From positions 45,818,001 to 45,882,000 of the forward strand of contig OY740791.1 in assembly GCA_963514005.1 (NCBI GenBank): a stretch of DNA of 64,000 nt. Direction: 5' to 3'. The notes beneath the pieces are model-generated. The model was not told where the DNA came from. It was given only the letters and a program-made list of their open reading frames with translations, and did no database searches. Shown here piece by piece: positions 1 through 64,000 of the stretch; within the stretch, counting starts at the first letter, position 1; each line of letters opens with the position of its first letter. The position numbers were made by a program, and so were the translations under genes. The stretch is from Raja brachyura. Lineage: Eukaryota.

Positions 1-15
1 TGACTTCTACTGGAA

Positions 16-2469
16 ATGAGATATAAATTATATTGGTTGATAAAATGCCAATTGATGTTCTGTGCGTTTGCCCCGTGGAATTTTGTGTCTGGGCAAATTC
101 GTTATTCTGTTCCTGAAGAACTGCAACATGGAGCCTTTGTTGGGAAAATCGCTGTCGATTTAGGTTTAGATGTAAAGCTGCTGGCGGCTCGCAGTTTCCG
201 GGTAGCGCCCAGTCCAAGGAAGCAATATTTCGACGTAAATTTGACAAGTGGTGTTTTATTTGTGAAGGAAATAATCGACAGAGAACTGCTTTGTGGGTCG
301 AAACCCGACTGCCGTTTACCCTTGGATGTTGTGCTTGAAAATCCCTTGAGCCTGTACCAAGTGGAAGTGGAGATTATCGATGTAAATGACAATGCCCCCA
401 GTTTCCCTAAAAGCCAGTTTCGCCTTGAAATTACGGAATTTACAGCACCGGGGATGCGATTTCCTCTTGAACCCGCACACGATCCCGATATTGGCACGAA
501 CTCTTTGCAAACCTACCAGCTCCAACCAAATGAACATTTTACACTCGACCTACAAATGGGCAGCGGGAAGGACAAGTGGCCGGTACTGGTGCTAGAGAAG
601 TCTTTGGACCGAGAAATAACGTCAGTACATCGTTTAATGTTAACAGCTAAGGACGGCGGTTTGCCTTCGAGATCTGCAACCGTTCAGATTATAATCACAG
701 TGAATGATCTTAATGACAACGCGCCTGCTTTCTCACAGTCGCATTACAAAGTCAGTCTGTTGGAGTCTGCACCGGCAGGGACCCTAATCCTTACGTTGAA
801 CGCCACTGACCCGGACGATGGCCTCAATGGAGAGATAGTGTATTCTTTCGGCAGCCATGTTTCCGCTGTTGCCCGCAGACTTGTTGATGTGAATTCCAAA
901 ACTGGTGAAATCAGACTCAAAGGGATTTTGGATTATGAGAAAAGCAATGTCTTTGAGGTTAGCATGCAGGCGATGGATAAGGGTTCCGGCGCTATCCCTG
1001 CGTATTGTCACGTATTGGTCGAAATTGTCGATGTGAACGATAACGCGCCGGAGATTACGTTACGGTCTTTATCAAAGACAGTGTCGGAAGATGCTCCACT
1101 TGGGACTGTAGTGGCACTGTTCAGTGCAGAAGACCACGATTCGGGACAGAATGGCGAGGTGCATTGCCAAGTTTCAAATCAACTCCCCTTTAAGCTGGAT
1201 TCATCTGTCAAGAACTATTACAGAATTATTGTAAAACATCCACTGGACCGGGAGAATGTCGCCAAGTACGATATCACTATAATATGCACGGATGCGGGCC
1301 ACCCTTCTCTTACCTCGCAGAAAACGATCCGGGTAGAGGTTTCAGATGTCAATGACAACTCGCCAAGGTTTTCTCGACCGGTGTACACGGCAAATGTTCA
1401 GGAAAACAATGTTATTGGGGCTTCTATATTTTCTGTGACGGCCTTCGATCCAGATGTAGAAGAAAATGCCCGACTGAACTTCTCTATCCTGGAGTCAGAG
1501 ATTCAGAATTCTTCAATAACCTCTTATGTCTCAATTAATCCCGAGAGTGGTGTCATATATGCTCGGGGTACGTTTGACTATGAACAATTGAAAGGCTTTC
1601 AGATACAGGTTCAAGTGCATGACTCTGGTGCACTCACGAGTAATGCTTCAGTGAATGTTATTATCCTTGATCAGAATGACAATGCTCCAGTGATTTTACA
1701 TCCTTCACCAGAATATGGTTCAACAGCGATAGAAACAATATCCAGATTTGCAGAACCAGGATACTTGGTTGTCAAAGTTTCAGCCACTGATGCAGATTCT
1801 GGTCAGAATGCTCATCTCTCTTATCAGATTTTTCAGGCTACTCATCACAATCTTTTCACCGTTTCCGCAGACACGGGTGAGGTTTGGACTATACGTCCAA
1901 TTTTGAACAAGGATGCGTCTCAACAAAGGTTGGTGGTTGTGGTAAAAGATAATGGAATTCCATCACTATCTGCCACTGTGACTATAGTATTATCTGTGAT
2001 TGGGACTGACATTGAAACGTTCCCCAGTGTCAACAGTTCGTCTTTAGATCCAAGTTTCGTCCCCGAACTGAGCTTTTCATTGGTTGTCGCGTTGGGAATA
2101 ATATCTGTCATTTTCCTCATTATTTTAGTCATCCTCGCTGTTAAAGTTCACAAGAACAGGAATGGTATGGTATACCACGACTGTCCCCTAGGTAATTGTT
2201 GCTGCCTTGAATCAAGGAATTCTCCTAATGGGATCCAGAAAGCCAGTAGAAGTCTTCAGATACCACCAAACTATGTTGAGGTATTTGGGGGCGATCCCCT
2301 TTCCCAAAGTTTCCGCTACGAGTCTTGTTCTACGTTACAGTCAACCAACAGAGATTTCATCGTCCCCAAAATGTGCAGACCCCCAAAAGACAAGAACATT
2401 CTGCTGAACGAATCTATGGGAAGAGAAAATATTGCAGTGGCGAATTCAGTAAAATACAATGTTTCAGAG
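16..2469 (+). CDS. Clustered protocadherin variable exon 1 (signal peptide, EC1-EC6, TM, variable cytoplasmic domain); 818 codons, predicted to splice to downstream constant exons
   Basis: ORF 16..2481: GQIRYSVPEE mature N-terminus, EC1 C-X5-C, DRE/DYE and DxNDNxP cadherin motifs, TM LVVALGIISVIFLIILVILAV. Phase-0 donor GAG|GTGAGA with GT at 2470; the ORF stops shortly into the intron. Confidence 0.96.
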
Positions 2470-2781
2470 GTGAGACAATAGTAAATCGAGTAGGAAACTT
2501 TTGCGAGTTTTGTTTCAAAGTACACGTGATTTGGTAAAACCAAGCTATTAACACATGCAGGAAAAAATGAGCTTAAATCAAAAATGTTGTTTGCTGTCCT
2601 AATTCTATTTCAAGTCTATGTTTTTTTCCCTCGTAGTGATCCTGTGACGGATTATATCTAATTTTAAAATATTAACAAATCGTTTTTAATCAGTGTTCTC
2701 GAAGTCATTTTGAGGGGCTTGTTACTTTTTTTTCTTTCTAATACACGTATTTCTCGTTCAATTGGTAATACGTTCGTTTCT

Positions 2782-2901
2782 GAAGCCCAAGCAGACCTTT
2801 AAGCCGAGGTGAGAATTACAATTCTTCCAATCTAATGCAATGCCCTCTGCGCTCACGATGTGGTCTCCTCTTCCGCGAGGAATACACGCGTAGATTGAGT
2901 G
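2782..2901 (+). mobile_element. Degenerate Penelope-like element fragment (GIY-YIG region)
   Basis: Broken frames give PKQTF, SSNL, SRCGLL and RRL, resembling the Penelope GIY-YIG stretch (PKQTFQVRQRFTCTSSNLVYCIRCSRCGLLYIGETKRRL). Recognised by eye only. Confidence 0.4.
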
Positions 2902-2904
2902 CAT

Positions 2905-3032
2905 AATTGATTAGTAAGGGTGTCAGATTTTATGAGTAAAAGGCATGAGAATGGGGTTAGGAGGGAGAGATAGATCAGCCATGGTTAAATGGCGGAGTAG
3001 ACTTGATGGGCCGAAAGGCCTAATTCTCTTAC
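2905..3032 (+). mobile_element. CR1-type LINE 3' end fragment
   Basis: GATAGATCAGCCATG...AATGGCGGAGTAGACTTGATGGGCCGAAAGGCCTAATTCT resembles the reverse complement of the CR1 3' ends at 3190 and 42825. Confidence 0.7.
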
Positions 3033-3165
3033 GGCAATTCTGCCCTGCGCTTCCTTGGAGTCCCTGGGCGTACATTCGCTGTTCGTTTGAAATCTGCACT
3101 CCACTCCTACTTTGAAGCGACCTCTAAACTCTTCCAATGCAACTTGGCATACAGTTGAGACCCAG

Positions 3166-4505: not shown

Positions 4506-4555
4506 GCAATATAACAATATGCCTGTTATAGCAATATAACTATATGCCTGTTATA
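4506..4555. repeat. Tandem duplication, 2 x 25 bp
   Basis: GCAATATAAC(A/T)ATATGCCTGTTATA occurs twice in tandem. Confidence 0.9.
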
Positions 4556-8399: not shown

Positions 8400-8497
8400 G
8401 CTTTAAGAAATGAGCTGAATTGTAATTGGTCGGATATGCCTGCTACATTATCCACCAATCAGGAGGTCGGAGGCGACTGGTGATCTGCACAGCGCTT
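8400..8497 (+). promoter_or_regulatory. Promoter module of variable exon 2
   Basis: GCTTTAAGAAA 8400, ATTGG 8425, CCAATCAG 8455, GGTGATCT 8479; 343 bp upstream of the ATG. Confidence 0.8.
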
Positions 8498-8742
8498 TAC
8501 AATACCCAGCCGCCATCGCGACCGATCAGACGCCGTGAACACTGGATAGGCAGCAGCTCCGGACGGTTTCTGCTCGATTCATTTCGAACTTGATATAAAA
8601 TCAGAACGGTTAAATGAAAACATTGGAACAATTCGGAAAGGAGGTAGAGATATTTTCTGCGCTGTATTTGTTTCATTCAAATCAAATCGCTGTTGAAAGG
8701 CATTGTCTCGGGTTGAAACCATTGGAATGATTTCTACTGGAA

Positions 8743-11190
8743 ATGAGAGATAATATATATTGGCTGCTGAAATACCAACTATTGTGCTGCTTTTTCTGCC
8801 CCTGGAACTTTATTGCTGGGCAGATTCGATATTCCGTTCCCGAGGAATTGCAACTGGGTGCCTTTGTTGGGAATATCGCAATTGATTTGAGGTTAGACTT
8901 AAAGCAGCTCCCGGCTCGCAGTTTGCGGGTGGCGCCCAGCCCAAGGAAGCGGTATATTGACGTAAATTTAGCAAAAGGGATTTTATTCGTGATTGAAAGA
9001 ATCGACAGAGAGCAGCTTTGCGGGCCGAGAACCGAATGCATTTTACCCTTGAACGTCGTGCTTGAAAATCCCCACACTCTTCACCAGGTGGAAGTGGAGA
9101 TACTCGATGTAAATGACAACGCTCCCAGTTTTCCAAAAAGACAGATCCGCCTTGAAATCTTAGAGAATATGGCACCGGGAGCGCGATTCCCCCTCGAGCC
9201 CGCTCACGATCCGGACATTGGGACGAACTCCGTGCAGACTTATCAGCTCCTTCCTAATGAGTATTTCATTCTTGATGTACAAGAACGTGGCAGGATAGGA
9301 AATTTACCAATGTTAGTGCTGCAGAGGACACTGGATAGAGAAACGACATCGACCCATGAGGTAACGCTGCTTGCTGAAGACGGCGGGCTCCCTGTAAGAT
9401 CGGGAGAGGTTCAGGTAACTATCAGAGTGAAGGATGTGAACGACAATCTCCCTGTTTTCTCACAAGCGGTTTACAGTGTCACTATGGTGGAATCGGCTCC
9501 AGCGGGAAGTCTGATTATTAAGTTAAACGCTACTGATATCGACGATGGACCTAATGGAGAGATAACATATACTCTCAGCAGCCATAACACTGCTGACGTT
9601 CGTGAATTAGTTGCCATGAATTCTGAAACTGGTGAAATCAGACTAAAAGGACATTTGGACTTTGAACAAAGTAAAACATTTGTGATTAATGTACAAGCAA
9701 TCGACAACGGTCCTTATGCAATACCTCAACACTGTGATATATTGCTTAATGTTATCGATGTGAATGACAATGCCCCTGAAGTGTCATTGACATTTATGTC
9801 CAGTTCAGTGGCAGAAAATTCACCAAACGGAACCATTGTCGCTCTTCTCAGAGCAGAAGATAAGGATTCTGGACAGAACGGGCAAGTACAATGTCAAATT
9901 CCGAATAACTTACCCTTTAAGATGGAATCCTCCATGAAGAATAATTGGAAACTACTTGTACAACACGGGCTGGATCGTGAAATTACCTCCAGGTATGATA
10001 TCAGTGTGACATGTACGGATGCAGGGGAGCCACCCCTCACATCCAAGAATAATATCCGTGTAGATGTTTCAGATGTAAATGATAACGCACCGAGGTTTAC
10101 GCAGGCTGCATACACGGCAAATGTCATGGAAAACAACGTTATTGGGGATTCCATATTCTCCCTCACAGCCAATGATCGAGACACGAGACAAAACGCCAGA
10201 TTAAACTTTACTATCCTGAATTCAGTCGTGGCCTCATATGTCTCCATTAACGCACAAAGTGGTGTCATTTGTGCTCAGAAATCGTTTGACTACGAACAAT
10301 TGAAAAATTTCCAAATCCATGTACTAGTGCGGGATTCTGGAGTCCCACCGCTCTCCAGTAACGTTACAGTAGACGTTGTTATCCTCGATCAGAACGATAA
10401 CGCTCCAGTGATCGTGAATCCTTTGCCCGAATATGGGTCAACTGTACTTGAGACAATATCCAGGTTTGCAGAACCTGGATACCTAGTTGCCAAGGTATCC
10501 GCTACTGACGCCGACTCCGGACAGAATGCCCGTCTGACTTACCACGTATTTCAGGCCACCCACCGTAATCTTTTTACTATTTCAGAGGACACAGGGGAAA
10601 TTTGGACTATCCGTGGCATTGAGACAAAGGATGCGTCTAAACAATGGCTGGTGATTGTTGTAAAAGATAATGGAATCCCATCACTTTCAGCCACAGTAAC
10701 TATTGTACTGTCTGTGAAAGGAAGCGACATGATTTCCAGTGCCACCAGTCTATCTAAAGATCACGTCTTCTCTCCAGATTTGAACCTTTCCTTGGTCATA
10801 GCCTTAGGGACGACGTCTATCATTTTCCTCGTGATTTTAATTATCCTTGCTGTTAAGGTTCATAAAAACAGAAACTATGTAGGACACCAATATAATTCTC
10901 TGAACGTCTGCTGCTGTTTGGAATCAAGGAGTTCTGTGAATGGGATTCAAAAGGCCAGCAGAAGTCTTCAGATAGCACCGAACTACGTTGAGGTATTCGG
11001 GGGAGATCCGCTTTCGCAGAGTTTCCGTTACGAGTCTTGTTCAACATTGCAGTCCGTGAAGAGAGATTTCAGGACCCCTCAAACTTGTGGGCTATCTACA
11101 GCAATGAAATATATCGAGAAAAACCCTATTGGGAAAGATAACCCAGGAATGAAAAGATCTGAAAAGTCAAACTGCCGTGTGAATAACGAG
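8743..11190 (+). CDS. Clustered protocadherin variable exon 2; 816 codons
   Basis: ORF 8743..11226 with six cadherin repeats and a TM; donor GAG|GTGAGT, GT at 11191, phase 0. Confidence 0.96.
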
Positions 11191-26232: not shown

Positions 26233-26477
26233 TACAATACCCAGCCGCCATCGCGTCCGATCAGACGCCGTGAACACTGGATAGGCAGCAGCTCCGGACG
26301 GTTTCTGTTTGATTCATTTCGAACTGGATACAACATCAGAACGATTAAATGAAAACATTGGAACAATTCGGAAAGGAGGTACAAACATTATCTGCGTCGT
26401 ATTTGTCTCATTTAAATCAAATCGCTGAGGAAAGGTGTTGGCTCGGGTTCAAACCATTGGAATGATTTCTACTGGAA

Positions 26478-28925
26478 ATGAGAGATAATATATATTGGCT
26501 GTTCAAATACCGACTATTGTGCTGCTTTTTCTGCTCCTGGGACCTTGTTTCTGGGCAGATTCGATATTCGATTCCCGAGGAATTACAACTGGGTGCCTTT
26601 GTTGGGAATATCGCAATTGATTTGGGGTTAGATTTAAAGCAGCTCCCGGCTCGCAGTTTGCGGGTGGCACCAGGACTGGAGAAGCGGTATGTTGACCTAA
26701 ATTTAGCAAAAGGTGTTTTATTTGTGAATGAGAGAATCGACAGAGAGCAGCTTTGCGGGCCGAGCATCGATTGCATTTTACCCCTGAACGTCGTGCTTGA
26801 AAATCCCCTCAGTCTTCACCAGGTGGAAGTGGAGATTCTCGATGTAAATGACAACGCACCCAGTTTTCCCAAAAGCCAGATACGTCTTGAAATCTCAGAG
26901 AATATGGCACCGGGAGCGCGATTCCCCCTCGAGCCCGCTCACGATCCGGACATTGGGACGAACTCCTTGCAGGCGTATCAGCTCATTCCCAATGATTATT
27001 TCATTCTTGATGTACAAGAACGTGCTAGGATAGGAGACTTACCCGTGTTAGTGCTGCAGCGGGCCCTGGATAGAGAAACCATATCGATCCATAAATTAAC
27101 GGTGCTTGCTGAAGACGGCGGAGTCCCTCTAAGATCAGGTATGGTTCAGGTAACTGTTAGAGTGAAGGACGCGAACGACAATCCCCCTGTTTTCTCACAA
27201 GCAGTTTATAGTGTCAGTCTGCTGGAATCGACTCCCACAGGAAGTCTGATTATTAAGTTAAATGCCACTGATTTGGACGATGGCCCTAATGGTAAGATAA
27301 CATATTCCTTCAGCAGCCATAATTCTGCTGACGTTCGCGAATTAGTTGCCGTGAATTCTCAATCTGGTGAAATCAGACTGAAAGGATATTTGGACTTTGA
27401 ACAAAGCAAAACCTTTGTGATTAATATGGAAGCAACCGATCATGGTTCTCCTTCAATGTCTCAACATTGTGATGTGTTGGTGGATGTTATCGATGTTAAT
27501 GACAATGCACCTGATGTGTCATTGACATCCATGTCCAGTGCAGTGGCTGAAAATGCTCCGATCGGAACCATTGTCGCCCTTCTCAGCGCAAAAGATAAGG
27601 ATTCTGGACAGAACGGACAAGTAAAATGTCAAATTCCGAATAAAGCCGCATTTAAGCTGGAAACATCAGTGAGGAATAGTTGGAAACTGCTTGTACAACA
27701 CGGGCTGGATCGTGAAACTATCCCCAGGTATGACATCGTTGTGACATGCACGGATGCAGGGGACCCACCGCTCACAACCAAGAAAAATATCCATGTAGAT
27801 GTTTCTGATGTAAATGATAACGCACCGAGATTTACGCAGGCTGCATACACGGCAAATGTCATGGAAAATAACGTTATTGGGGATTCCATATTCTCCCTCA
27901 CGGCCGACGATCCAGACACGGGACAAAACGCCCGATTAAACTTTACAATCTTTAATTCAGTTGTGGCCTCGTATGTCTCCATTGACTCACAAAATGGTGT
28001 CATATTTGCTCAGAAATCATTTGACTACGAACAATTGAAAAACTTCCAGATCCATGTATTGGTGCGGGATTCTGGAGACCCACCACTGTCCAGTGACGTT
28101 ACAGTGAACGTTGTTATCCTCGATCAGAACGATAACGCTCCAGTGATCGTGAATCCTTTGCCAGAGCATGGGAAAACTGTAATGGAGACAATATCGAGGT
28201 TTGCAGAGCCTGGGTACCTAGTTGCCAAGGTATCCGCTACTGACCACGACTCCGGTCAGAATGCCCGTCTGACTTATCATGTTTTTCAGGCCACCCACCG
28301 TAATCTTTTTACTATTTCAGAGGACACAGGGGAAATTTGGACCATCCGTGGCATTGAGACAAAGGATCCACCTGAACAAAGGCTGGTGATTGTTGTAAAA
28401 GATAATGGAATCCCGTCACTTTCAGCCACAGTTACCATTGTTCTATCTGTGAAAGGAGGCGACACGATATCCAGTGCCACCAGTCTTGCTAAAGATCACG
28501 TCTTCGCTCCAGATTTTAACCTTTCCTTGGTCATAGCTTTAGGAACGACATCTACCATTTGCCTCGTGATTTTAATTATCCTGGCTGTTAAGGTTTATAA
28601 AAACAGAAATGGCGTGGAACGTCAATATGGTTCCCTGAACGTCTGCTGTTGTTTGGAGTCAAGGAGTTCTCTGAATGGGATTCAAAATGCCAGCAGAAGC
28701 CTTCAAATACCACCGAACTACGTTGAGGTATTCGGAGGGGATCCGCTTTCTCAGAGTTACCGTTATGAGTCTTGTTCAACGTTGCAATCTGCGAAGAGAG
28801 ATTTAAGGACTACTCAAACGTACGGGCTATCTACAGCAATGGATTATATCCCGGAAAAAACGATTGGCAAAGAGAACCCAGGAATGTTAAGTTCTGAAAA
28901 CTCCAATTGCCTTGTGAATAACGAG
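26478..28925 (+). CDS. Clustered protocadherin variable exon 5; 816 codons
   Basis: ORF 26478..28949; donor GAG|GTGAGT, GT at 28926. Confidence 0.96.
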
Positions 28926-31619: not shown

Positions 31620-31864
31620 TACAATACCCAGCCGCCATCGCGTCCGATCAGACGCCGTGAACACTGGATAGGCAGCAGCTCCGGACGGTTTCTGTTTGAC
31701 TCATTTCGAACTAGATACAACATCAGAACGATTAAATGAAAACATTGGAACAATTCGCAAAGGAGGTAGAGACATTTTCTGCGTCGTGTTTGTCTCATTT
31801 AAATCAAATCGCTGTCGAGAGGTATTGTCCAGGATTCAAACCATTCGAATGATTTCTACTGGAA

Positions 31865-34312
31865 ATGAGAGATAATATATATTGGCTGCTCAAATACCGA
31901 CTATTTTGCTGCTTTTTCTGCCGCTGGGACCTTGTTTCTGGGCAGATTCGATATTCGGTACCAGAGGAATTGCAAGTGGGTGCCTTTGTTGGGAATATCG
32001 CAATTGATTTGGGATTGGATTTAAAGGAGCTCTCGGCTCGCAGAACACGAGTGGCGCCCAGCCCGAGGAAGCGGTATGTTGACGTAAATTTGCAGAATGG
32101 GGCTTTATTTGTGAATGAAAGAATCGACAGGGAGCTGTTTTGCGGGCCGAGCATAGAATGCATTTTACCCTTGAATATCGTACTTGAAAATCCCCTCGGT
32201 CTTCACCAGGTGGAAGTGGAGATACTCGATGTAAATGACAACGCTCCCAGTTTCCCCAAAAGCCAGATCCGTCTTGAAATCTCAGAGAATATGGCACCGG
32301 GAGCGCGATTCCGCCTCGAGGCCGCTCACGATCCGGACATTGGGACGAACTCCTTGCAGACTTACCAGCTCCTCCCCAATGAGTATTTTATTCTTGATGT
32401 ACAAGAACGTGTTAGGGTAGGAATTACACCGGTGTTAGTGCTGCAGAGGGCTCTGGACAGAGAAACGACATCGACCCATGACATAACGGTGCTTGCTGAA
32501 GACGGCGGTGTCCCTGTAAGATCGGGTACGGTCCAGGTAACCGTCAGAGTAAAGGACGCGAACGACAATCCTCCCGTTTTCCCGCAAGCGGTTTATAGTG
32601 TCAGTATGGTGGAATCGGCTCGCATAGGAAATCTGATTATTAAGTTAAACGCCACCGATTTGGACGATGGCCCTAATGGAGAGATAACATATTCCCTCAC
32701 CAATCATAACTCTGCTGACGTTCGTGAATTAGTTGGCGTGAATTCGAAAACTGGTGAAATCAGGCTGAAAGGACATTTGGACTTTGAACAAAGCAAAACC
32801 TTTGTGATTAATATAGAAGCAACCGATCATGGTTCTCCTTCAATGTCTCAACACTGTGATGTGTTGGTGGACGTTATCGATGTGAATGACAATGCCCCTG
32901 AATTGTCATTGACATCTATGTCCAGTGCCGTTGCAGAAAATGCTCCAATCGGAACAATTGTCGCCCTTCTCAGCGTAGAAGATAAAGATTCTGGACAAAG
33001 CGGGCAAGTACAATGTCAAATTCCAAGTCAACTACCCTTTCAGCTGGAATCATCTGTGAAGAATAATTGGAAACTCCTTATACAACAAGGACTGGACCGA
33101 GAAACGAACTCGGGGTATGACATCACTGTGACATGCGCGGATGCAGGGGACCCACCGCTCACATCTCAGAAAGATATCCGTGTCGATGTTTCTGATGTAA
33201 ATGATAACGCACCGAAGTTTACGCAGGCTGCATACACGGCAAATGTCATGGAGAATAACGTTATTGGGTATTCCATATTCGCCCTCACTGCCTATGATCT
33301 AGACAGGGGACAGAACGCCCGACTAAACTTTACAATCCTGAATTCAGTCGTGGCCTCATATGTCTCCATTGACTCACAAAATGGTGTCATTTTTGCTCAA
33401 AAATCATTTGACTACGAACAATTGAAACATTTCCAAATCCATGTAATGGTGCTGGATTGTGGAGTCCCAACGCTCTCCAGTAACGTTACAGTAGACGTTG
33501 TTATCCTCGATCAAAACGATAACGCCCCAGTGATCGTGAATCCTTTGCCCGAGCATGGGTCAACTGTAATGGAGACAATATCCAGGTTTGCAGAGCCAGG
33601 ATACCTAGTTGCCAAGGTATCCGCTATTGATGCCGACTCCGGTCAGAATGCCCGTCTGATTTATCATGTTTTTCACGCCACCCACCATAATCTTTTTACT
33701 ATTTCAGAGGACACGGGGGAAATTTGGACCATCCGTGGTATTGAGACCAAGGATGCATCGAAACAAAGGCTGGTGATTGTTGTAAATGATAATGGAATCC
33801 CATCGCTTTCAGCCACAGTGACCATTGTACTATTTATGGAAGGAAGCGACACGATATCCAGTGCCACCAGTCTTTCTAAAGATCACGTGTTCTCTCCAGA
33901 TATGAACCTTTCCTTGGTCATAGCGTTAGGGACAACATCTATAATTTTCCTCGTGATTTTAATTATCCTTGCTCTTATGGTTCATAAAAATAGAAATGGT
34001 GTAGTACGCCATTACAGTTCTCTGAACGTCTGCTGCTGTTTAGAATCAAGGAGTTCTCTGAATGGGGTACAAAAGGCCAGCAAAAGCCTTCACTTACCAC
34101 CAAACTACGTTGAGGTATTCGGAGGTGATCCGCTTTCTCAGAGTTACCGTTACGAGTCTTGTTCAACGTTGCAGTCTGCCAAGAGAGATTTAAGGACCCC
34201 TCAGACATGTGGCCTATCTACAGCAATGGGGTATGTCCAGAAAAACCCTATTGGAAAGGAGGACCCAGGAATGATAAGTTCTGAAAACTCCAACTTTCGT
34301 GTGAATAACGAG
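31865..34312 (+). CDS. Clustered protocadherin variable exon 6; 816 codons
   Basis: ORF 31865..34567; donor GAG|GTGAGT, GT at 34313. The last 84 aa of the ORF are intronic. Confidence 0.96.
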
Positions 34313-39334: not shown

Positions 39335-39587
39335 CGACATTACCCACCCACTCTTACGTGAGATCAGAAGCACTGAAGAATTGAATGGCGAGCAGCTCGC
39401 AGAATTTCTGCGATAATCCACTGGTAACTATGAACAAAATTAGAAGATGGACATGAAATGATCCGTGTGATTTATGGTACAGCTGAAGTGTGGAACATCG
39501 CGGTTTAAATGCATAAGAAATCCAAATAAAGAGACCATTAATGTTGGCGTCACGAACTGAAAGACATTGGAATGATTTACACTGGAA

Positions 39588-42041
39588 ATGAGGTACAAAA
39601 TATATTGGCTGCTAAAATGTCGATTGCTCTGCTGCCTCTTCTCTTCATGGGGTATGGTTTCGGGGACGATTCGTTATTCGATTCCTGAGGAGCTGCAACT
39701 GGGAGCCTTTGTTGGGAACCTCGCAGACGATTTGGGTTTAGATATAAATCAGCTATCGACACGAGGTTCCCGCATCGTGGCCGGTTCCAAAAAAATATAT
39801 ATGGACATCAATTTGGACAATGGAATTCTCTTTGTGAAGAAAAAAATCGACAGAGAACAGCTATGTAAGTCGAGTATCTTTTGTGTGTTATCCTTCGACG
39901 TTTTGTTCGAAAATCCGCTGAAATTGTACACGGTTTCAGTGGAGATTCTCGATGTAAATGATAACGCTCCTATTTTTCCAGAGAGCCAAATCGGCCTTGA
40001 AATCCCGGAGCTGGCTGCACCGGGAGCCCGTTTCCTCCTCGAGTCTGCGCAGGATGCCGATGTTGGAACCAACTCCTTGCAAACTTACAAGCTCCAGCCA
40101 AACGAATATTTCTTTCTCGATGTGCAGACGCGCAGTGGGAGTGAAATGTTACCAGTATTGGTGTTGCAGAGGCCCTTGGACAGGGAAAAACAATCCATCC
40201 ACAAATTGGTCTTGGTAGCAGAAGACGGCGGTGTTCCTTTAAGATCGGGCACCGTTCAGGTTACTATAACAGTGAATGATGCAAACGATAACGTGCCTAT
40301 TTTTTCTCAGTCGGTATATAGAGTCAGCCTGCTTGAGTCCGCACCCAAGGGAACGCTTATTGTCAAATTAAACGCCACTGATCCGGACGATGGACCTAAC
40401 GGGGAGATAATGTACTCTTTCACCAGCCATAATTCAGCCAGAGTACGTAAACTTTTTGCTGTTAATTCCAAAAATGGTGAAATTAGACTGAAAGGGAATT
40501 TGGATTACGAGGAAAGTAGCACAGTTCAGATGAACGTACAAGCAATTGATATGGGTTTAAACGCAATGGCTGTGCGTTGTGATGTGTTACTGGACATTAT
40601 TGATGCCAATGATAACGTGCCCGAGGTGACGCTCACATCTCAGTCAAGCAAGGTTTTGGAAGATGCCCCTAATGGGACGGTAGTGGTATTGTTCAGTGTA
40701 GAAGACAAGGACTCGGCCCAAAATGGACAAGTGCAATGCCAAATTTCAAACAATCTGCCCTTTCGATTAGATTCGACTCTGAGGAATTATTACGAGCTCC
40801 AAATTGATCAGCCGTTGGATCGTGAGAATACGTCTAGCTATGATATGACTATAACATGCACGGATTCAGGGATCCCTCCTCTCTCATCCGAGTCAACGGT
40901 TCGTGTAGAGGTTACAGATGTAAATGACAACGCGCCACGATTTTTGCATCCCTCGTACACAGCAAACGTCGTGGAGAATAACGTTATTGGTGCTTCTATA
41001 TTACGTTTGAATGCCATCGATCCAGACGCAGGACACAATGCCCGATTGAAATTTTATTTTCTGGAGCCCGCGCTTCAAGGCACACAAGCATCGTCTTATG
41101 TATCGATTAACTCAACGAGTGGAGTCATATTCGCCGAAAGATCATTTGACTACGAACAATTGAAACACTTCCGCGTCCAGGTTCAGGTGCAGGATTGTGG
41201 AGTCCCACCGCTCACCAGTAACGTTGCAGTGGATGTTGTTATCCTCGATCAGAATGATAACGCCCCAGTCATCGTGAGTCCTTTGCCGGAATATGGGTCA
41301 ACAGTAATGGAGACAATTTCCAGATTTGCCGAACCGGGATATCTTGTGCTCAAGTTATCAGCTATAGATGCTGACAATGGTCAAAATGCCCTTCTCTCTT
41401 TCCAAATTTATCAGGCTACCCATCACGACCTTTTTACTATTTCGCCAGAGACTGGCGAAATTTGGACTACCCGACGAATCATGAGCAGGGATGCTTCGAT
41501 TCAAAGACTGGTGATTGTGGTAAAAGATAGCGGAAATCCTCCTCTTTCAGCCTCTGTGACGATATTATTGACGGTAGCAGGCGGTCACAGTCAAACATTC
41601 TCCAGTATTAACAGTGTTACTGAAAATACCGGGTTCACTTTGGATCTGAGTTTTTCCTTGGTCATAATCTTAGGAATAACATCCAGCGTTTTATTTGTTA
41701 TTTTAGTCATACTCGGATTTATTGTTCATAGAAACAGACAAGGATTGGGAGGGCAGCGCTGTTCCCTGTGCGTTTGTTGTTGTTTTGGACCAGGGGCATC
41801 TCTGAATGGAATTCAAAAGGCCAGTAGAAGCCTTCAGATCCCTCCTAATTACGTAGAGGTATTCGGGGGCGATCCACTTTCTCAACGATTTCGATACGAA
41901 TCGTGCTCAACGTTGCAATCGACGAATGCCAAAGCTTACGGGCAACCTGCAGACAAGCATTATGTCCAGACAGAGTTTTTCAGGAAAGGCAAACCTGAAA
42001 AGGGGAATTTGGACAATTGCAGCAGCACTGTAAACAACGAG
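39588..42041 (+). CDS. Clustered protocadherin variable exon 7; 818 codons
   Basis: ORF 39588..42068; donor GAG|GTGAGA, GT at 42042. Confidence 0.96.
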
Positions 42042-48686: not shown

Positions 48687-48936
48687 TCCCTCCTCATCCA
48701 CCATCACAGACATACATACAGTGTGAATCTGAATGGCGGACTGCGAAATGTTTCCTTGGTTCATTCGGCTACCAGGGAGTTTCGGAGAAAGAAGGTTTGT
48801 CGGACTCGAACGGCCCATTCTCTTATGTCTTTCAGCGCCTGTTCATCAAGAAAATTATATATCAAGAACTTAATTTTCAGGACTGAAAGAGCGGCGCCGC
48901 AATGCGCTGAAGCAACTGGAATGCTTTGTGCCGGCG

Positions 48937-51396
48937 ATGGGATATTATCGAGTATTATGGATGTTAAACTGGCAACTGTTCTATTGCGTTGTTTTCGACT
49001 GGGTTGTGGCTTCTGGACAGATTCGCTATTCGATCCCTGAAGAACTCCAACTCGGCGCCTTTGTTGGAAATATTGCAGACGATCTGGGGCTACGTACAAA
49101 GGAGCTCACGGCTCGCAATTTTCAGATTGTGCCCGGTTCCCGGAAACAGTATTTGGAGGTAAATTTAGACAATGGAATTATGTTTGTTAAACAAAGAATC
49201 GACAGGGAACAGTTGTGTGGAGCAAGCCTAACATGCACATTGTCTTTGGAAGCTGTAGTCGAAAATCCTCTGACCGTGTATCGCATTGAAGTGGAGATTC
49301 AGGACGTAAATGATAATACTCCCACTTTCCCGAACAGCCAGATACGCCTTAAAATTTCAGAGCATGCAGCGCCGGGAGCGCGCTTTCCCTTGGAGGGTGC
49401 ACGGGACTCGGACGTTGGAACAAATTCCTTGCAGACCTACCAGCTGACTGCCAACGAATATTTCACATTAGACATTGACTCACGCGGTGGGGACCGCAAG
49501 TTTGCAGTGCTAGTGCTGGATCGATCTTTGGATAGAGAAAAGCAAGCGACATACAAGTTGGAACTGCTCGCCAAAGACGGGGGGGTCCCTGCTAAGACGG
49601 GCATTGCTGAGATAATAATTGTAGTGCAGGACGAAAACGACAATGCACCTGGTTTTCCAAACTCCGTTTACAGAGTTAGTATCCTAGAAAATGTGCCCAA
49701 AGGAACGCTGGTTATCAAATTAAACGCCACGGATTTAGATTATGGCTCCAATGGCGACATATTGTACTCGTTCAGCAGTCAATCGTCTGTTAGAGCCCGT
49801 GAATCGTTTTATGTGGATTCCAGAACGGGGGAAATCAGAGTCAAGGGAAATCTGGACTATGAGGAGGAAAGTATATTTGAGATTAACATACAGGCACTGG
49901 ACCAGGGTATTAATCCAAGTGCCGGATACTGTCACGTCGTGGTTAACATTATAGATGTCAATGACAACGCCCCTGAGGTGAAGTTAACCTCTTTGTTCAG
50001 CCCAGTCCGCGAGGACTCACCACCCGGGACCGTTGTGGCTTTGATTGGTGCATCGGACGCTGACTCTGGAGATAATGGGCAGGTAGATTGTGAAATCGCA
50101 GCGAGACTGCCTTTCACGTTGGATTCGTCTCTGAGAAATTATTACAGGCTACTTACACATCGGCGGCTGGACAGAGAAAATACCTCTAGATATGACATTC
50201 CTATTATGTGCAGTGATTCTGGCTCTCCTCCCCTCGTCTCCAGGAAAACCATTGCAGTGGAAGTTTCGGATATAAATGACAATCCGCCGCATTTTACGCA
50301 GTCTACCTACACGGCTTACGTGATGGAGAATAACGTCATTGGGGCACCAATCATCACAGTCATGGCTGTTGATGTAGATTTGAGTCAGAACTCCCAATTA
50401 TATTACTCTGTTCTGGAGAGCCAAGCGCTGGGCGAGTCTGCGTCCACTTACGTCAGGGTCAATCCCAAAAACGGCGACATATTTGCTCAGAGAACGTTCG
50501 ACTACGAGCAACTGAAAAACTTCCAGATCCAAGTCCAGGCCATGGATTCTGGGGAGCCGCCACACACTGCCACCACATTCGTGGATGTAGTTATCCTTGA
50601 CCAGAATGATAACGCTCCGGTGATCGTGCATCCTGACACAGAGTACGGTTCAACAGCGTCGGAGACAATATCCCGCTCTGCAGACCCAGGCTACCTGGTC
50701 ACCAAGATTACAGCCACTGATGCTGACTCGGGTCAGAATGCACGACTCTCCTACCAGATTCTCCAGTCGACTGACCTGGGACTTTTCACTATCTCCCCCG
50801 ATACAGGAGAAATCTGGACAATCCGCAGCTTCGCAAGAAAAGATGCAAACAAGCAAAGGCTGATTGTTGTTGTGAACGATAATGGGACCCCAACACTCTC
50901 TGCCACGATGACCCTCGTCTTGTCGGTGGCAGAAGACAACACAGAAATTCTTTCTCGTGTCAACAACTTAACTGAAGATGCTGGCGAGATAAGCTTTTAC
51001 TTAGTTATAGCTTTAGGCATCATCTCTTCCACTTTCTTACTCATTTTGATTGGCCTTGCTATCACAGTGTACAAAAACAGACACGGATTTGGGGGATATA
51101 CGTGTTCCCTGGATACATGCTGTTGCTTTTCAACGAGGTCCTCACTGAATAACTTCCAAAAGGGCAGGAGAAATATTCAGATACCGCCGAATTATGTCGA
51201 AGTATTTGGAGGCGATCCTCTTTCTCAACGGTACCGCTACGGAACCTGTTCCACTTCCACTTCCAGCAAAGGAGATTTTTTGCACTCCAACGGGTGCAGT
51301 TCGTCTACCGCCAGGAATTATGGCAGGGGCGAAATTGTGTGCAATAATGAACAGTCACAGTCATCGCATTCTAACAATTATAGCAACATTGGTGAG
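48937..51396 (+). CDS. Clustered protocadherin variable exon 8; 820 codons
   Basis: The track starts at GTG 48928; the aligned ATG is at 48937 (MGYYRVLW). Donor GAG|GTGAGG, GT at 51397. Confidence 0.95.
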
Positions 51397-54632: not shown

Positions 54633-54835
54633 TGGATTACCAAGGGCCTGGATTCAAAACATATAGTGGAGTTGAACATTCTTCTCTTAATGCGTTTTCA
54701 GAATATACAAAGTTTCGATATTTAAAGATTCACAGATAAATGAAAGTAACCAAACCATTCAAAGTTAAGGACCATTTATTTCTTTTGATTGTACAATATT
54801 AAATGTATGCAGCGTCGCTTTAACAGGACAACACA

Positions 54836-54923
54836 GCTTTAAGAAACGAACATTGTTCTGATTGGTGCGCCGCAAACAACCAATCAGCACCTACTGTGTG
54901 ACTGGAGATCTTGACTGCCCCCT
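54836..54923 (+). promoter_or_regulatory. Promoter module of variable exon 9
   Basis: GCTTTAAGAAA 54836, ATTGG 54861, CCAATCAG 54880, GGAGATCT 54904; 364 bp upstream of the ATG. Confidence 0.8.
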
Positions 54924-55199
54924 TTTCCCTCGCACCATCACATACGAACAAGGAACAATGTAAATTGGACAGCGAGGCGTCTTGATTTGCGGCAGTTTCC
55001 GCGGGTCCTTCTATTCCGGATTTTTACCACAAACTGGAAGGTCTGATCAAACAATCGAGGCCATTTACTGAAAGGAAACATTTTCTTCAGCGAGAAAGCC
55101 TTTTCTTCTGAAGGTATACATATTATTTTTAGTCACAGTGGGACAAAAACCGAAAGGCACCGTATCGCACGGAAGCCATTGGAATGTTTAACACCGGCG

Positions 55200-57665
55200 A
55201 TGAGATGTTATAACCTATTTTGTTGCTTAAAATGGGAACTGTTGTATTACATGTTTATCGCCTGGGAGATAATTTTCGCAGAGATTCATTACTCGATTCC
55301 TGAAGAATTACAACGTGGCGCCGTTATTGGGAACATCGCGGCCGATTTAGAGTTGGATGTTAAACAGCTCGCAGCTCGTAATTTTCGTTTGGTTTCAGGT
55401 CCAAAAAAGCGGTATTTGGAAGTAAATTTAAACAATGGGATTTTGTCTGTGAAGGAGAGGATTGATAGGGAAGAACTGTGTGGCGCAAGCCTTACTTGCG
55501 TTCTGTCTTTGGAGGCCGTGCTTGAAAATCCTCTCAGTCTGTACCAAATCGAAGTGGACATTGTGGATATTAACGACAACTCTCCCAGTTTTCCAAAAAG
55601 CCAATTCCGCCTTGAAATCTCTGAGAATATTGCGCCGGGAGCGCGATTCATTCTCGACGCCGCTCACGATCTAGATATTGGAACTAACTCTGTTCAAACT
55701 TACCAACTCGTTACAAATGAGTACTTTGCATTAAATGTTGAATATGGAATCGCAGATTTGAAATTACCAGTTTTAGTGCTGGAAGAGCCCTTAGACAGGG
55801 AAAAGCATTCGACCCACAAATTACTGCTCTTAGCCAAAGATGGCGGAGTCCCCGAAAGGACAGGCTCCGCCCAAATTAATGTCGTGGTAGAAGATGCCAA
55901 TGATAATGCGCCGGTGTTCTCTCGGTCGATTTACAAAGTCAATTTGTGGGAAAATGCGACAAAAGGGGCATTGGTACTTCAAGTAAATGCTACTGATTTG
56001 GATGATGGCCCCAATGGAGAGATTGTGTACACTTTAAGTACTCATACCTCTGCCAGCGTCCGTGAGATTTTTAGTGTGGATTCTCGTACTGGTGAAGTAG
56101 AACTTAATGCTAATTTAGATTACGAAGAAAATAATGCTTTTGATATTATTATTCAAGCAAAGGATAAGGGATCTAACGCCATCCTGGTGTACAGTCATAT
56201 TTTGCTAAATGTTTTAGATGTAAACGACAACGCGCCTGAGATAAGCTTGACATCTTTATCGAGCCCAGTTGCAGAGGATTCGTTACCTGGAACAGTGGTA
56301 GCTCTCATAAGTGCGTCTGACAGAGATTCCGGCAGAAATGGGCAACTCCGGTGCCAAGTTGAAAATGAAGTGCCTTTCACACTCGATTCATCGTCCAAGA
56401 AGCACTTCAAACTACTCACCCAGCAACCTCTAGATCGCGAATCCGCCTCCACACACAACGTAATAATCAGCTGTAGAGATGAAGGCAGTCCGCCTCTCGC
56501 CTCCAACAAAAGCATCCTAATTGAAGTGTCGGACAGGAACGACAACGCACCACAATTCTCGCAACCTTTCTTCACAGCCTACGTGACGGAGAATAGTAAT
56601 ATTGATGCCTCGATATTCTCAGTGATGGCTTTTGATCCAGACAAAGGTGAAAATGCTCGGCTGTCGTACGACATTCTGGACAGTTGGGTACAAGCTCAAT
56701 CGGTACACAATTATGTTTATATTAAAGCAGAGACTGGTGTAATATATTCCTACATATCTTTTGACTATGAAAAGTTAAAAAACTTTCAGATCCGTGTTCA
56801 GGCACATGACAATGGAGTCCCACAACTCTCCAGCAATGTCTCCGTAGATGTTATAATTCTTGACCAGAATGATAACGCCCCGGTGATCGTTCATCCATTA
56901 ATCGAGTATGGGCAACCTGCCACAGAGGCTGTATCCCGTTTTGCGGAAGCAGGCTATCCAGTGACCAAAGTTATGGCTACAGATGCTGACTCTGGTCCAA
57001 ACGCTCGCCTATGCTATCGGATCCTCCAAGCTACAGACATGGGACTATTTACTATTGCTGACGAGACGGGAGAAATATGGACAACCCGTGCTGTTACAAA
57101 GACAGATGCTACCAAGCAAAGGCTGGTGATCGAAGTCAACGACAACGGGATACCACCTCTTTCAACTTCGATAAGTATAATCTTGTCATTGATCGATGAC
57201 GAGGGATCACTAATGTCCGACAGGAACAGCATGTTGGAAAGGCCCAAACCTCCTTCTGTTACCAGCTTCTACTTGGTCATTTCATTGGGAATAATTACGA
57301 CTATTTTTCTGGTAATTTTAATTATTCTAGCTGTTAAAGTTCACAACGGCAGAAATGCCTTTGAGTACCATGGCTGTGTTCTGGGCCCGTGTGGTTGCTT
57401 CGGGTCAAGACATCCCCGCAACGGAATCCAGAAAGCCAGTCGCAACCTACGCATTCCTCCCAATTACGTTGAGGTATTTGGGGGAGACCCGCTATCACAG
57501 AGTTACCGCTATGAAACTTGTTCCATGGCACGTTCAACAAAGGGAAACCTTTTGTTCCCCAACACCTGCAGTTCATCAAATGGAAACGACAAAACCATCG
57601 GTGAAGTTATTGCAAAGGGAGGAACCGTGTTGTTCAGTAATTGTGAGAATAATGTTCATTCTGAG
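55200..57665 (+). CDS. Clustered protocadherin variable exon 9; 822 codons
   Basis: The track starts at TTG 55179; the aligned ATG is at 55200 (MRCYNLF). Donor GAG|GTGAGA, GT at 57666. Confidence 0.95.
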
Positions 57666-57877
57666 GTGAGAACGCCTGTTTGGTAGGAAAAGTCGGCGTT
57701 AACTGGCATTAAGTTGGCATCAGGAAGATATGATTTCACTGTGTATGTTGTGCATATGACCCGACACTGATCGGATCACAAGTGTAGTATCCAACCACTA
57801 GTTTACGTTTAACTAATTGCTATTGCCATCATTTTATTCTGTAGTATTAAAACATAAAGTGGATCACACAAGAATAT

Positions 57878-58115
57878 AACAAGGAACTGCAGATGCTGGT
57901 TTATTCCAAGTATAGATACAAAATGCTGGAGGAACTCAACGGGTTAGGCAGCATCTCTGGAGAAAAATGAATTTTGGGCCGAGATATGTCTGAAGAAGGG
58001 TCCCGACCCGAAACTCAAGACAACTGAAGTCTAGAGTACGGTCCCGACCCCACGCGTCACATATCCATGTTCTCCAAAGACACTACCGAAGCCATTGAAT
58101 TACTCCAATATTTTG
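57878..58115. mobile_element. Short Penelope-derived element with a hammerhead-like core
   Basis: ACAAGGAACTGCAGATGCTGG...AAAATGCTGGAG.AACTCA..GGCAGCATCTCTGGAG; CTGAAGAAGGGTCCCGACCCGAAAC at 57990-58014. Confidence 0.78.
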
Positions 58116-59072: not shown

Positions 59073-59344
59073 ACCCTCCCCTTCCGCCATTATATCCGTC
59101 TGGATACCGTGTAACATGGATAGAGCTGTGCTTGCTTACGTTCGGTTCTTTACATTCATCTACTGGCGAAATCATAAGAAATAAGAAGGTTTGTCAGAAA
59201 TTGTTACGCAGATTTTTTAAACAGCGGCTATATTTTTTTTTTGTGCATTTCAGTGAAAATGGAATAACGATTCACTCTTTTTAGCTGGAATTGTTCAACG
59301 TCGCCGCGTTGTTCTCAAATCATTTGAAATGCTTTGTTCTGGAA

Positions 59345-61774
59345 ATGGAATTTTATAAACGATATTGGCTATTGAAATGGCAACTTTTTTACTGTATTAT
59401 CCCTTTCTGGCAAATTATTTCTGGACAGATACGTTATACGATTCCTGAAGAATTGAATGCCGGAGCTTTTGTTGGAAATATCGCAGAGGATCTGGGTTTG
59501 GATATAAAAGATCTCTCGGCTCGCGGCTTTCAAATTGTGCCTGGACCTAGCAAGGAGTATATAGACGTAAATTTAGATACTGGTGTTTTGTTTGTGAAGG
59601 AAAAGATGGACAGAGAACAGTTGTGTGGGCAGAATCGTGTTTGCACATTCTATATGGAGGCAGTGATTGAAAATCCTCTGAATGTGTACCATTTCCAAGT
59701 GGACATTTTGGATGTAAATGACAATGCGCCGAGATTTCCCGAGAGCCAGTTCAATTTGGATATATCGGAGCTGGCTGCTCCGGGTACGCGCTTCGCCCTG
59801 GAGCGCGCAGACGACCCAGACGTTGGCACCAACTCGGTACAAAGCTACCGGCTGGTAGACAACGGCTATTTCTCCCTCGACGTGGAAACGTTGGGCGGCG
59901 ACGGAAAGTTACCGGTTTTAGTCTTGGAAAGACCGCTGGACAGAGAAAAGGAAAGCACGCACAGGTTGGTGTTGATATCGAAAGACGGAGGGATTCCTGA
60001 GCGATCTGGAACTGCTGAAATACTGATCGGCGTGGAGGATGCCAACGACAACGCGCCTGTTTTCTCCCAGCCCATCTATAGGGTCAGTTTGCCAGAGAAT
60101 GCACCCATAGGTATATTGGTGATACAATTAGATGCCTCTGATTTGGATGTTGGTCTGAATGGGCAGATAATATATTCGTTCGGCAGTCATACTTCGAATC
60201 CAATTCGGGAACATTTTGGGCTGGATTCGAATAGTGGCGAAATCAGAGTTAAGAACACTTTGGATTACGAGAAAAATAGTATTTTTGAAATTAATGTTCA
60301 AGCAAAAGATAATGGGCCATACGCTACCGTGGTGTACTGTCACGTTTTGGTCAATATCGTTGATGTGAATGACAACGCTCCTATTGTAACGGTGACATCT
60401 TTATTCAGTCCTGTCGGGGAAGACGCGCTACCGGGGACTGTAGTGGCTCTGATCAGTTCCACAGACAAGGATTCGGCTGAAAACGGGCGCGTGGATTGCG
60501 AAATCCCAAATGACCTTCCTTTTAAACTGGATTCGTCCTTAAATAACTATTATAGACTAGTTACTCGGGAAACGCTGGATCGTGAGCGTGTATCATCTTA
60601 CAATGTAACAGTTGTGTGTGGCGACGCCGGGAATCCTCCGCTAACATCGAACAAAACGGTCCTGGTTGAAGTCTCCGATATAAACGACCATCCGCCTCAA
60701 TTCACACAGCCTGTGTATACAGCTTACGTGATGGAGAATAATGTAATTGGTGCGTCAATATTCACTGTGACAGCTTTGGATCAAGATCTAAATAGGAACG
60801 CCCATCTGTCCTACTTTATTTTGGAGACTCAGATACAGGGCATGTCAATATCCACATACGTCTCCATCAACAGTGGGGTCATATTTTCGCAGAGGAGTTT
60901 CGACTACGAACACCTCAAAGGCTTTCAGGTCCAGGTTCAGGCGCGGGACTCTGGGATCCCACCACTTTCTGGCAACGCCTCAGTGGATGTGATGATATTG
61001 GATCAGAATGACAACGCTCCGGTGATCGTGCATCCGTTACCCGAATTCGGTTCCACCGTGTTAGAGACGATATCCCGGCACGCAGAACCGGGCTACCTGG
61101 TCGCCAAAGTTTCGGCTACAGACGGTGACACTGGTCAAAATGCTCGCCTTTCCTACCAGATCTGTCAAGCTACAGATGCCGGCCTCTTCACCATTTCACC
61201 GGACACTGGAGAAATCTGGACAATACGCAGTATTAGGAAGAATGACGCCGCCAAGCAAAGGTTGGTCATCTGCGTCAAGGATGACGGATCACCGCCTCTT
61301 ACAGCCACTGTGGCAATCGTCTTGTCTTTAGTTGGAAATGATAGACAAATGCTTTCAGATGTGAATAATTTGTCTGAGGGTGCCGGGTTTGCTTCTGGCA
61401 CCAGCTTTTACCTTGTAATAACTTTAGGGATCACATCATCCGTTTTTCTATTGATATTGATTATCCTCGCCATTAAGGTCCATAGAAACTCTTCCCTTGG
61501 CGCATGTGGTTGTTTTACAGCAAGAAACTCATTGCACAGAGCCAACAGAAGCCTTCAGATACCACCAAACTATGTTGAGGTATTTGGAGGTGATCCTCTT
61601 TCGCAGGGCTTCCGCTATGATTCATGCTCAAGTTCACATTCTGTAAAGAGGGATGTCAGGTTGTCCAACGGTGGATCTACGCGTAAGAATTACGCTCCTG
61701 GTGGCATTTTGGGAAATGACGATACTTTGCAAAACCTCAATTCAGCACAGTACATGAATACTCTAAATAACGAG
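59345..61774 (+). CDS. Clustered protocadherin variable exon 10; 810 codons
   Basis: The track starts at TTG 59291; the aligned ATG is at 59345 (MEFYKRYW). Donor GAG|GTGAGG, GT at 61775. Confidence 0.95.
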
Positions 61775-62369: not shown

Positions 62370-62580
62370 GATACAAAGAACTGCAGATGCTATTATACAC
62401 AAAAGGACACAGAGTGCTGGAGTAACTCAGCGGGTCAGCAGCTTCTCTGAGGAACATGGATAGGTGACTTTTTCCATCGGGACCCTTTAGATTGGAAGAA
62501 GGGACCCGAGCCGAAACGTCAGCTGTCCATGTTTTCCAGAGAGTTTCTCCAGCACTTTGTGTATTTTTGGACCAAGCATT
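62370..62580. mobile_element. Palindromic short Penelope-derived element
   Basis: AGAACTGCAGATGCT...GACACAGAGTGCTGGAGTAACTCAGCGGGTCAG...GAAGAAGGGACCCGAGCCGAAACGTCA...CTCCAGCACTTTGTGT. Confidence 0.78.
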
Positions 62581-62849
62581 GAATCGTCCATAATCGCATA
62601 AAAGTGTTTCTTAAAAAAAAAAAAAGTATATTTAGAGATAGCATTGTCTGATTTGTTTTGAGAGCACGAAAAACAAATCTTATCACTATATTTCGGTGAC
62701 AATAACAAACCTATATTTAAAGCTGCTGACTCTTTGAAAATCCACCAAAAGTAAGCAAGGCAAAGGAAATCAAATCAATGCGGGAAATGGTGTAAGAAAT
62801 TTACATTGTACACTGACAAAATATTACAGAGATAAACAGGGACATTCCA

Positions 62850-62938
62850 GCTTTAAGAAATGTCCTGGGTGGTGATTGGTTGAACGTCAGTTCACCAATC
62901 AGAAGCTGCAATGTATCTGGTGATCTTGACTGCTCCCT
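62850..62938 (+). promoter_or_regulatory. Promoter module of variable exon 11
   Basis: GCTTTAAGAAA 62850, ATTGG 62875, CCAATCAG 62895, GGTGATCT 62919; 356 bp upstream of the ATG. Confidence 0.8.
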
Positions 62939-63205
62939 TCCCTCCCAGCCACCATTACGTATGATCAGAAACAATGTAAAACTCCGCATAGCGAGCTGCG
63001 TAGCGCTGGAATGGGTTCTGAATTCGAAAGCATTGGATATTTTAATTGAAGTGAGAAGGTTCGAACACAATCTTAATAACCTTTGAAAAAAAAACAGGTA
63101 TTTTGTGCGGCATTGCCTCTTTTATCTTTAAAACTGGCATTAATTCCAGAGAAAAACGGTGAATGGCGTGTCGCGCTGAAGTAATTGCAATGCGTTGTAA
63201 AGGAG

Positions 63206-64000
63206 ATGGGATATTTTAAAATATGTTGGCCGCTGAAATGGTCACTTTTTTACTACGTATTATCACCCTGGGTTCTGGTTTCGGGGCAGATTCGCTATTC
63301 AATGCCTGAAGAACTGCAAATGGGTGCCTTTGTTGGAAATATCGCCGACGATTTGGATTTAGACGTGAAAGAGCTGGCTGCCCGCAGTTTTCGGATTGTG
63401 TCTAGTCCCAGGAAGCAGTATCTGGATGTAAATTTGGACAATGGAATTCTTTATGTGAAGGGAGAAATTGACAGGGAGCAGCTCTGCGGGTCGAACCCCG
63501 TGTGCACATTGTTCTTGGAGGCCGTGATTGAAAATCCGTTGACGGCGTATCATTTTCAAGTCGAGATTCTGGATGTAAATGACAACGCCCCCCGTTTCCC
63601 CCATACCCAATTCCGCCTGGAAATCTCCGAGATTGTGGCGCAAGGTTCACGTTTTGCCCTCGAGTCGGCACAGGACCCAGATGTCGGAAGCAACTCAGTT
63701 CAGACGTACCAGTTGGACGATAACGAGTATTTCATCATAGATATTCAGTCACGCCGTGGAGATGGCAAGTTGCCGGTGTTAGTGTTACAAAGGCAACTGG
63801 ACAGGGAGAAACAAACGAGCCACAAGTTAGTCCTGATTGCCAAGGACGGAGGCATCCCACAAAAATCTGGGACGGCTCAGATAACTGTCATAGTGCAGGA
63901 TGCGAACGACAATGCGCCGGTGTTCCAGCAATCGGAATACAGGACGAGTCTGCGGGAAAACACACCCCGGGGAACCCTGGTAATCAAACTCAATGCTACT
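63206..64000 (+). CDS. Clustered protocadherin variable exon 11, 5' part (runs off the window; missing from the supplied ORF track)
   Basis: Manual translation from ATG 63206: MGYFKICWPLKWSLFYYVLSPWVLVSGQIRYSMPEELQMGAFVGNIADDL...DREQLCGSNPVC...DVNDNAPRF...AKDGGIP...DANDNAPVF; no stop seen before the window end. Confidence 0.95.
   Translation, partial: MGYFKICWPLKWSLFYYVLSPWVLVSGQIRYSMPEELQMGAFVGNIADDLDLDVKELAARSFRIVSSPRKQYLDVNLDNGILYVKGEIDREQLCGSNPVCTLFLEAVIENPLTAYHFQVEILDVNDNAPRFPHTQFRLEISEIVAQGSRFALESAQDPDVGSNSVQTYQLDDNEYFIIDIQSRRGDGKLPVLVLQRQLDREKQTSHKLVLIAKDGGIPQKSGTAQITVIVQDANDNAPVFQQSEYRTSLRENTPRGTLVIKLNAT

Follow-up and report, generated by a model that had tools for sequence, protein, structure and literature searches.

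An out-of-frame ATG 16 nucleotides upstream of the start codon, conserved in nu-type protocadherin genes of the skate Raja brachyura

The window analyzed here is a 64,000-nt stretch of the genome of the skate Raja brachyura (contig OY740791.1, positions 45,818,001 to 45,882,000) that carries, in tandem on the plus strand, 11 open reading frames (ORFs) for protocadherin variable exons. Each of these exons is preceded by an ATG that lies out of frame with the main start codon and exactly 16 nt upstream of it (position -16; Table 1). This upstream ATG (uATG) is a trait of one protocadherin subfamily, the nu type, and is under purifying selection within it, to a degree that exceeds chance or neutral descent. 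The reading that we favor is that it represents an old overlapping upstream start codon that damps the translation of nu genes; judging from the sequence evidence presented below, we put the likelihood of this reading at about even.

Distribution of the uATG in the protocadherin cluster

The proteins most similar to the window ORFs come from skates (95% and 94% identity). A search of the R. brachyura genome itself returned at least 77 matches, 73 of them on the same contig as the window. All matches outside the window were examined with their flanks, together with 12 intervening stretches of the cluster, 9 to 10 kb each, in which tblastn detected no additional intact exon. Starts were assigned for 72 cluster exons; one match without a usable Met was left out. 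The window exons fall in a 20-gene clade located at the 3' end of the cluster (tree support, 0.994), and the nu8, nu9, nu13, nu15, and nu17 proteins of the elephant shark, C. milii, nest inside this clade (FastTree support, 0.999). Based on this monophyly of the variable exons with named C. milii proteins, the 20 skate genes are assigned to the nu-type protocadherins, a subfamily that passages of PMC2764143 describe as lacking orthologs in bony vertebrates.

The uATG is found at -16, out of frame, in 18 of the 20 nu-clade genes and in a single one (L029) of the 52 other cluster exons whose start could be assigned. These counts rule out the cluster-wide reading put forward in the original prediction, which was made from the letters of the window and placed the uATG before "every variable exon." For the window itself, that description holds: the ten uATG/main-ATG pairs, each 16 nt apart, agree in all coordinates and peptides, every upstream ORF (uORF) that it listed overlaps the main start, most uORFs have 8 or 9 codons (38 in exon 7 and 39 in exon 8), and 9 of the 10 uATGs have G at -3. 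The A that it expected right before the window is present, which gives exon 1 (L001) a uATG as well and brings the window count to 11 of 11. Among all uATG-bearing nu genes, the uORF stop lies 3' of the main start in 17 of 18.

Table 1. Coordinates of uORFs in the window and of additional features of exon 9
Feature	Coordinates	Strand	Main ATG	Description
Exon 1 uORF	1..26	+	16	8 aa; its A is one base before the window
Exon 2 uORF	8727..8753	+	8743	8 aa
Exon 3 uORF	14753..14779	+	14769	8 aa
Exon 4 uORF	21283..21309	+	21299	8 aa
Exon 5 uORF	26462..26488	+	26478	8 aa
Exon 6 uORF	31849..31875	+	31865	8 aa; uATG with C at -3
Exon 7 uORF	39572..39688	+	39588	38 aa
Exon 8 uORF	48921..49040	+	48937	39 aa
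Exon 9 uORF	55184..55213	+	55200	9 aa
Exon 10 uORF	59329..59358	+	59345	9 aa
Exon 11 uORF	63190..63219	+	63206	9 aa
Exon 9 promoter-like module	54835..54945	+		GCTTTAAG, ATTGG, CCAATCAG, GATC..GCCCC, CCATC
Exon 9 slow gap-free block (-27..-1)	55173..55199	+		contains the uATG; common to all 20 clade members
Exon 9 variable-exon ORF	55200..57686	+		828 aa up to the first stop

Constraint on the leader end in skate and other cartilaginous fishes

Substitution rates were compared with those of fourfold-degenerate (4D) sites, which give a tree length of 9.4 to 9.9 substitutions per site for the 20 nu genes. On this scale, the ATG at -16 evolves at 0.109x. In neutral simulations, the ATG was retained in a mean of 2.4 genes, and retention in 18 or more of the 20 was reached in 0 of 400,000 runs; these two results exclude pure neutral descent. 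The ATG is part of a gap-free, slow block (-27..-1, about 0.38-0.44x), upstream of which the leader (-81..-28) evolves at 0.9-1.06x. No other triplet at the leader end is as slow: the ATG evolves more slowly than the rest of -27..-1 (0.44x; likelihood ratio test, p 0.004) and than the rest of -21..-10 (0.36x; p 0.026), and positions -19..-17 are altered in 7 of the 18 genes that keep it. The leader end, ATG included, is under constraint; a constraint specific to the ATG over its block is probable and modest in size. The uORF peptides of the nu clade range from 4 to 52 aa and have no common sequence, and neither peptide nor stop is conserved, which suggests that only the start of the uORF matters.

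Further evidence comes from shark, ray, and chimaera gene models whose protein continues in frame across the leader. We collected 22 distinct nu-type leaders, of which 7 came from a leader-blind search, 6 from a leader-containing profile, and 9 from cluster look-ups; duplicates and three chimaera models spliced into the signal peptide, with no Met, were left out. The codon at -15..-13 specifies Cys (16 leaders) or Trp (2 leaders) in 18 of the 22, and the residue before it is always E, K, Q, or G, each of which can be encoded with a final A. Together with the TGA stop seen in skate genes, Cys and Trp make up all three classes of TG- codons, so that the constraint appears to act on the nucleotides and not on a peptide. 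The leader element likely predates the divergence of chimaeras and elasmobranchs, which took place about 420 million years ago. The L004 leader by itself, used as a protein query, matched one sequence, which lacks the extension, and no shark host DNA turned up in a scan of metagenomes.

Several observations weigh against the view that the uATG is a selected start codon. Two intact nu genes, L009 and L010, have lost it, and the 4-aa uORF of L004 ends before the main start and does not overlap it. The difference in rate between the ATG and its 5' neighbors is not significant (p 0.07 for -19..-17 and p 0.12 for -20..-17), and when columns are shuffled, the named triplet is this slow in 1.9% of the shuffles and any triplet in 36%. 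Among the ten genes beyond the earlier list of pairs, the ATG is kept in eight, an outcome with a probability of 0.07-0.16 at block-level rates. A control clade of 23 genes without a common uATG also has a slow -27..-1 segment (0.54x), with one triplet at 0.15x, and a start codon alone would not account for the further bases A-27, T-20, and T-11, each conserved in 19 of the 20 nu genes. With regard to other species, Cys or Trp is not at the exact position in 4 of the 22 leaders: judging from back-translations, one is apparently spliced there, two from chimaera are shifted by one base, and one has the Cys one codon closer. The shift in the two chimaera leaders would fit an ATG at -17, a position that is likewise out of frame. 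Finally, A and G at -16 are not distinguishable from protein, and the sample is limited to leaders that are open in frame, 6 of the 22 having been found by the leader-containing profile.

Alternative explanations of the constraint

The extent of the slow block would also fit a binding site at -27..-10, recognized by a factor that binds DNA or RNA; the core of the site would read ATG by accident, and translation from it would be a tolerated side effect. The entire block is gap-free and slow (0.38x), it includes the three bases kept in 19 of 20 genes, and L009 and L010 have lost multiple block positions jointly. Its ancestral form, TGGAATGY, is what we take to be a TEAD-type site, and TGGAATG is intact in 11 of the 20 genes. 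However, 7 of the 18 genes that keep the ATG have a disrupted GGAATG core, which speaks against the TEAD-like element named in the original prediction, and other species often break the core too, with residue -6 being other than E in 9 of 18 leaders. Further, the distance of the uATG to the start codon is fixed, whereas promoter motifs vary by about 40 nt, which points to translation and not to a binding site. RNAalifold predicted no pairs in the -30..+30 segments of the 20 nu sequences, an Rfam search gave 0 hits, and a search for neuron-restrictive silencer elements (NRSEs) gave 1 match at 3 mismatches, versus 1.47 expected. We consider a binding site rather unlikely.

Alternatively, a general slowing near the start, caused by initiation context or by gene conversion between paralogs, might carry along an ancestral, nearly neutral ATG. 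Signal-peptide third positions of the nu genes evolve at 0.58x and the 4D sites of the first 60 codons (11 sites) at 0.65x, and the leader end of the control clade is slow as well (0.54x). In addition, nu leaders tolerate 57 other ATGs, unevenly distributed, in -230..-30 (82 expected), and according to PMC3486843, most overlapping uORFs are slightly deleterious and are tolerated when populations are small. Nevertheless, the probability that 18 or more of the 20 genes retain the ATG would be 3e-5 at 0.58x, 7e-4 at 0.44x, and 4e-3 even at 0.35x, and if the ATG were slightly harmful, it would be expected to change at a higher rate than its neighbors, not at a lower one. The persistence of TG- in shark and chimaera lineages also argues against such hitchhiking, as does the nearly flat third-position identity along the exon (0.45-0.56), which indicates limited conversion. 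We consider this explanation distinctly unlikely.

The original prediction also pointed to an in-frame, near-cognate CTG or TTG at -21, which would start a seven-residue extension of the signal peptide and make the ATG a by-product of Glu-Cys codons. YTG is indeed found at -21 in 17 of the 20 genes, and the in-frame reading is recognizably alike from skate to chimaera. This frame, though, is cut by TGA at -15 in 12 of the 20 skate genes, and residue -6 varies (E, K, Q, G), yet its wobble base is A in 18 of 20. Moreover, Cys is replaced by Trp or a stop and Leu by Ser or Pro, and two chimaera leaders look frameshifted, all of which renders an in-frame extension highly improbable.

Other candidates were dropped: frameshifting into the main frame (no common slippery site was seen by eye), selenocysteine at the in-frame TGA (which precedes the signal-peptide Met), and ATF4-type reinitiation (the spacing is too short).

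A putative translational throttle and related leader features

Position -3 of the uATG is G in 16 of 18 genes, and none of the 18 has G at +4. At the main ATG, all 20 nu genes carry G at -3 and 15 carry A at +4, whereas other exons combine A at -3 with G at +4 in 29 of 46; the context of the main start is weaker in nu than in the other subfamilies. In the mechanism that we propose, the uAUG and the main AUG, which share G at -3, would compete for initiation, and the uAUG would divert part of the scanning ribosomes, resulting in partial, constitutive repression and a lower output of nu proteins. Ribosomes initiating at the uAUG would terminate a few codons past the main start and no longer be available to the main frame, and some nonsense-mediated decay (NMD) might follow. 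Combined with the weaker main context, the uAUG would set the level of the subfamily lower and would not equalize its isoforms. Thus, from the conserved leaky-scanning throttle of the original prediction, the selected uAUG is kept as the best single reading, because it is the slowest triplet while its neighbors, peptide, and stop change; the cluster-wide scope is given up, and the suggestion that the dosage of isoforms is equalized finds no support, the 57 further leader ATGs being unevenly spread. We suggest, tentatively and with some doubt, that a decoy AUG at a fixed short distance has served as a translational throttle since before the chimaera-shark split, setting the surface stoichiometry of nu relative to other subfamilies.

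This mechanism depends on the presence of the uAUG in the mRNA. A promoter-like module is common to the 20 clade members at about -370..-250, with motifs that presumably resemble CCAAT, CTCF, and YY1 sites. Given the position of this module, the transcription start would lie far 5' of the uATG, and the leader, of about 240 nt, would include the uAUG. Contigs from runs that were guessed to be RNA cover the leader and start of exon 9 without interruption (X1, -241..+443; X5, -246..+266; X2, -114..+443) and the exon 10 start (X2 from -239, with one inserted base, and X1 from -83), and no difference from the genome falls at -16..-14 among those listed; exons 8 and 11 were left out of this comparison. 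These contigs are compatible with a uATG in the mRNA and do not prove it, which is a further point against the favored reading: the runs are RNA by guess only, X1 is flagged as probably DNA, and most differences and joints lie outside those listed. The contig ends (-241 and -246 in exon 9, -239 in exon 10, with thin intergenic cover) were not accepted as transcription starts, because no DNA run was compared, 21 letters of X1 do not fit at this place, and the end of a contig does not establish a start.

With respect to further leader ATGs, exon 7 has six additional ones within -150, and in exon 9 the uATG is the sole ATG from -241 to the start. In the non-nu subfamilies, ATGs are depleted at -30..-1 (9 observed versus 21 expected). 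A second ATG near -130 (at -129; window positions 8614, 14640, 21170, 26349, and 31736) is found in exons 2 to 6 and in several related genes; four members of this set have a 38-aa in-frame uORF that begins with it and ends in a TGA overlapping the ATG at -16. Donor-like AG|GTA sites (TG|GTA in exon 7) are seen at -86..-120 in 17 of the 20 nu leaders (e.g., at window positions 8644, 14670, and 63098), often paired with an AG near -58. These may represent a small intron of the 5' untranslated region, a donor for skipping the coding exon, or a U1 site; in each case, the ATG at -16 would stay. Strong donor-like G|GTAAG sites occur near -65 in another subfamily (L033, L035, L037, L053, L054, and L056).

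As for the origin of the element, the uATG context (-21..-14) resembles, by eye, that of the main start (-6..+3) minus one base, which suggests that part of the start region underwent a short tandem duplication. In L015, outside the clade, the end of the leader (-15..-1) is similar to the nu block but 6 nt shorter, with CTG in place of ATG, and may hint at the origin of the element. The deeply diverged paralogs L016, L017, and L018 share an ATG at -25 that is likewise out of frame and overlapping; its frame is that of position -16, and its AATG context is similar. The close paralogs L057 to L059 have such an ATG at -10.

The delayed reinitiation system of ATF4 and GCN4 is similar in that an overlapping uORF comes after a short one near -130 in some nu leaders, but the 16-nt spacing is too short for ribosomes to bypass the uAUG and reload, and neither the frame nor the length of the upstream uORFs is constant. 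The overlapping uORFs known from animals (oORFs or VuORFs), as portrayed in parts of PMC3486843 and PMC4890304, share with the nu uORFs an out-of-frame AUG, a stop inside the coding sequence, the lack of peptide conservation, and an expected repression, and a minority of them are conserved. Unlike animal oORFs in general, the skate uAUG is kept by position in 18 of 20 deeply diverged paralogs, apparently across cartilaginous fishes, and it sits close to the start, where passages of PMC4890304 report ATGs of vertebrate leaders to be depleted. In yeast, according to portions of PMC9743702, out-of-frame uATGs at -30..-3 reduce output, less so when close to the start, and trigger NMD. Such proximal competition, in which a uATG within 30 nt represses depending on distance and context and NMD has a part, resembles the skate case; unlike it, the yeast data come from synthetic libraries, with no natural conserved family and no fish. 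For the elephant shark, whose five nu proteins nest among the skate genes, the cluster control described in passages of PMC2926608 is transcriptional, involving a CGCT element and NRSEs, and these passages mention no uAUG in the leaders. Our literature search found no paper on a protocadherin uORF in titles and abstracts; Yu et al. 2008, on the elephant-shark nu subcluster, or its supplement may show these leaders. Overlapping uORFs as such are well known, and the nu uAUG is most likely a further case, with a predicted function.

Clustered protocadherins have been studied almost wholly from the side of promoter choice, and recognition depends on the amount of each isoform at the surface. A selected, subfamily-wide uAUG, if true, would mean translation-level tuning, a layer of control below promoter choice, and the 20 natural leader variants, including two losses, are well suited to a simple reporter comparison. 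Its reach is limited to one subfamily, without bony-vertebrate orthologs according to PMC2764143, and to an already known kind of uORF.

Elsewhere in the cluster, broken or truncated variable exons (L028, L036, L038, L042, L051, L057, L060, and L079) all belong to the upstream subfamilies; none of the 20 nu genes is truncated or broken. A high-copy repeat lies directly 3' of exon 9 (window positions ~57880-58070) and attracts thousands of contigs in each run aligned.

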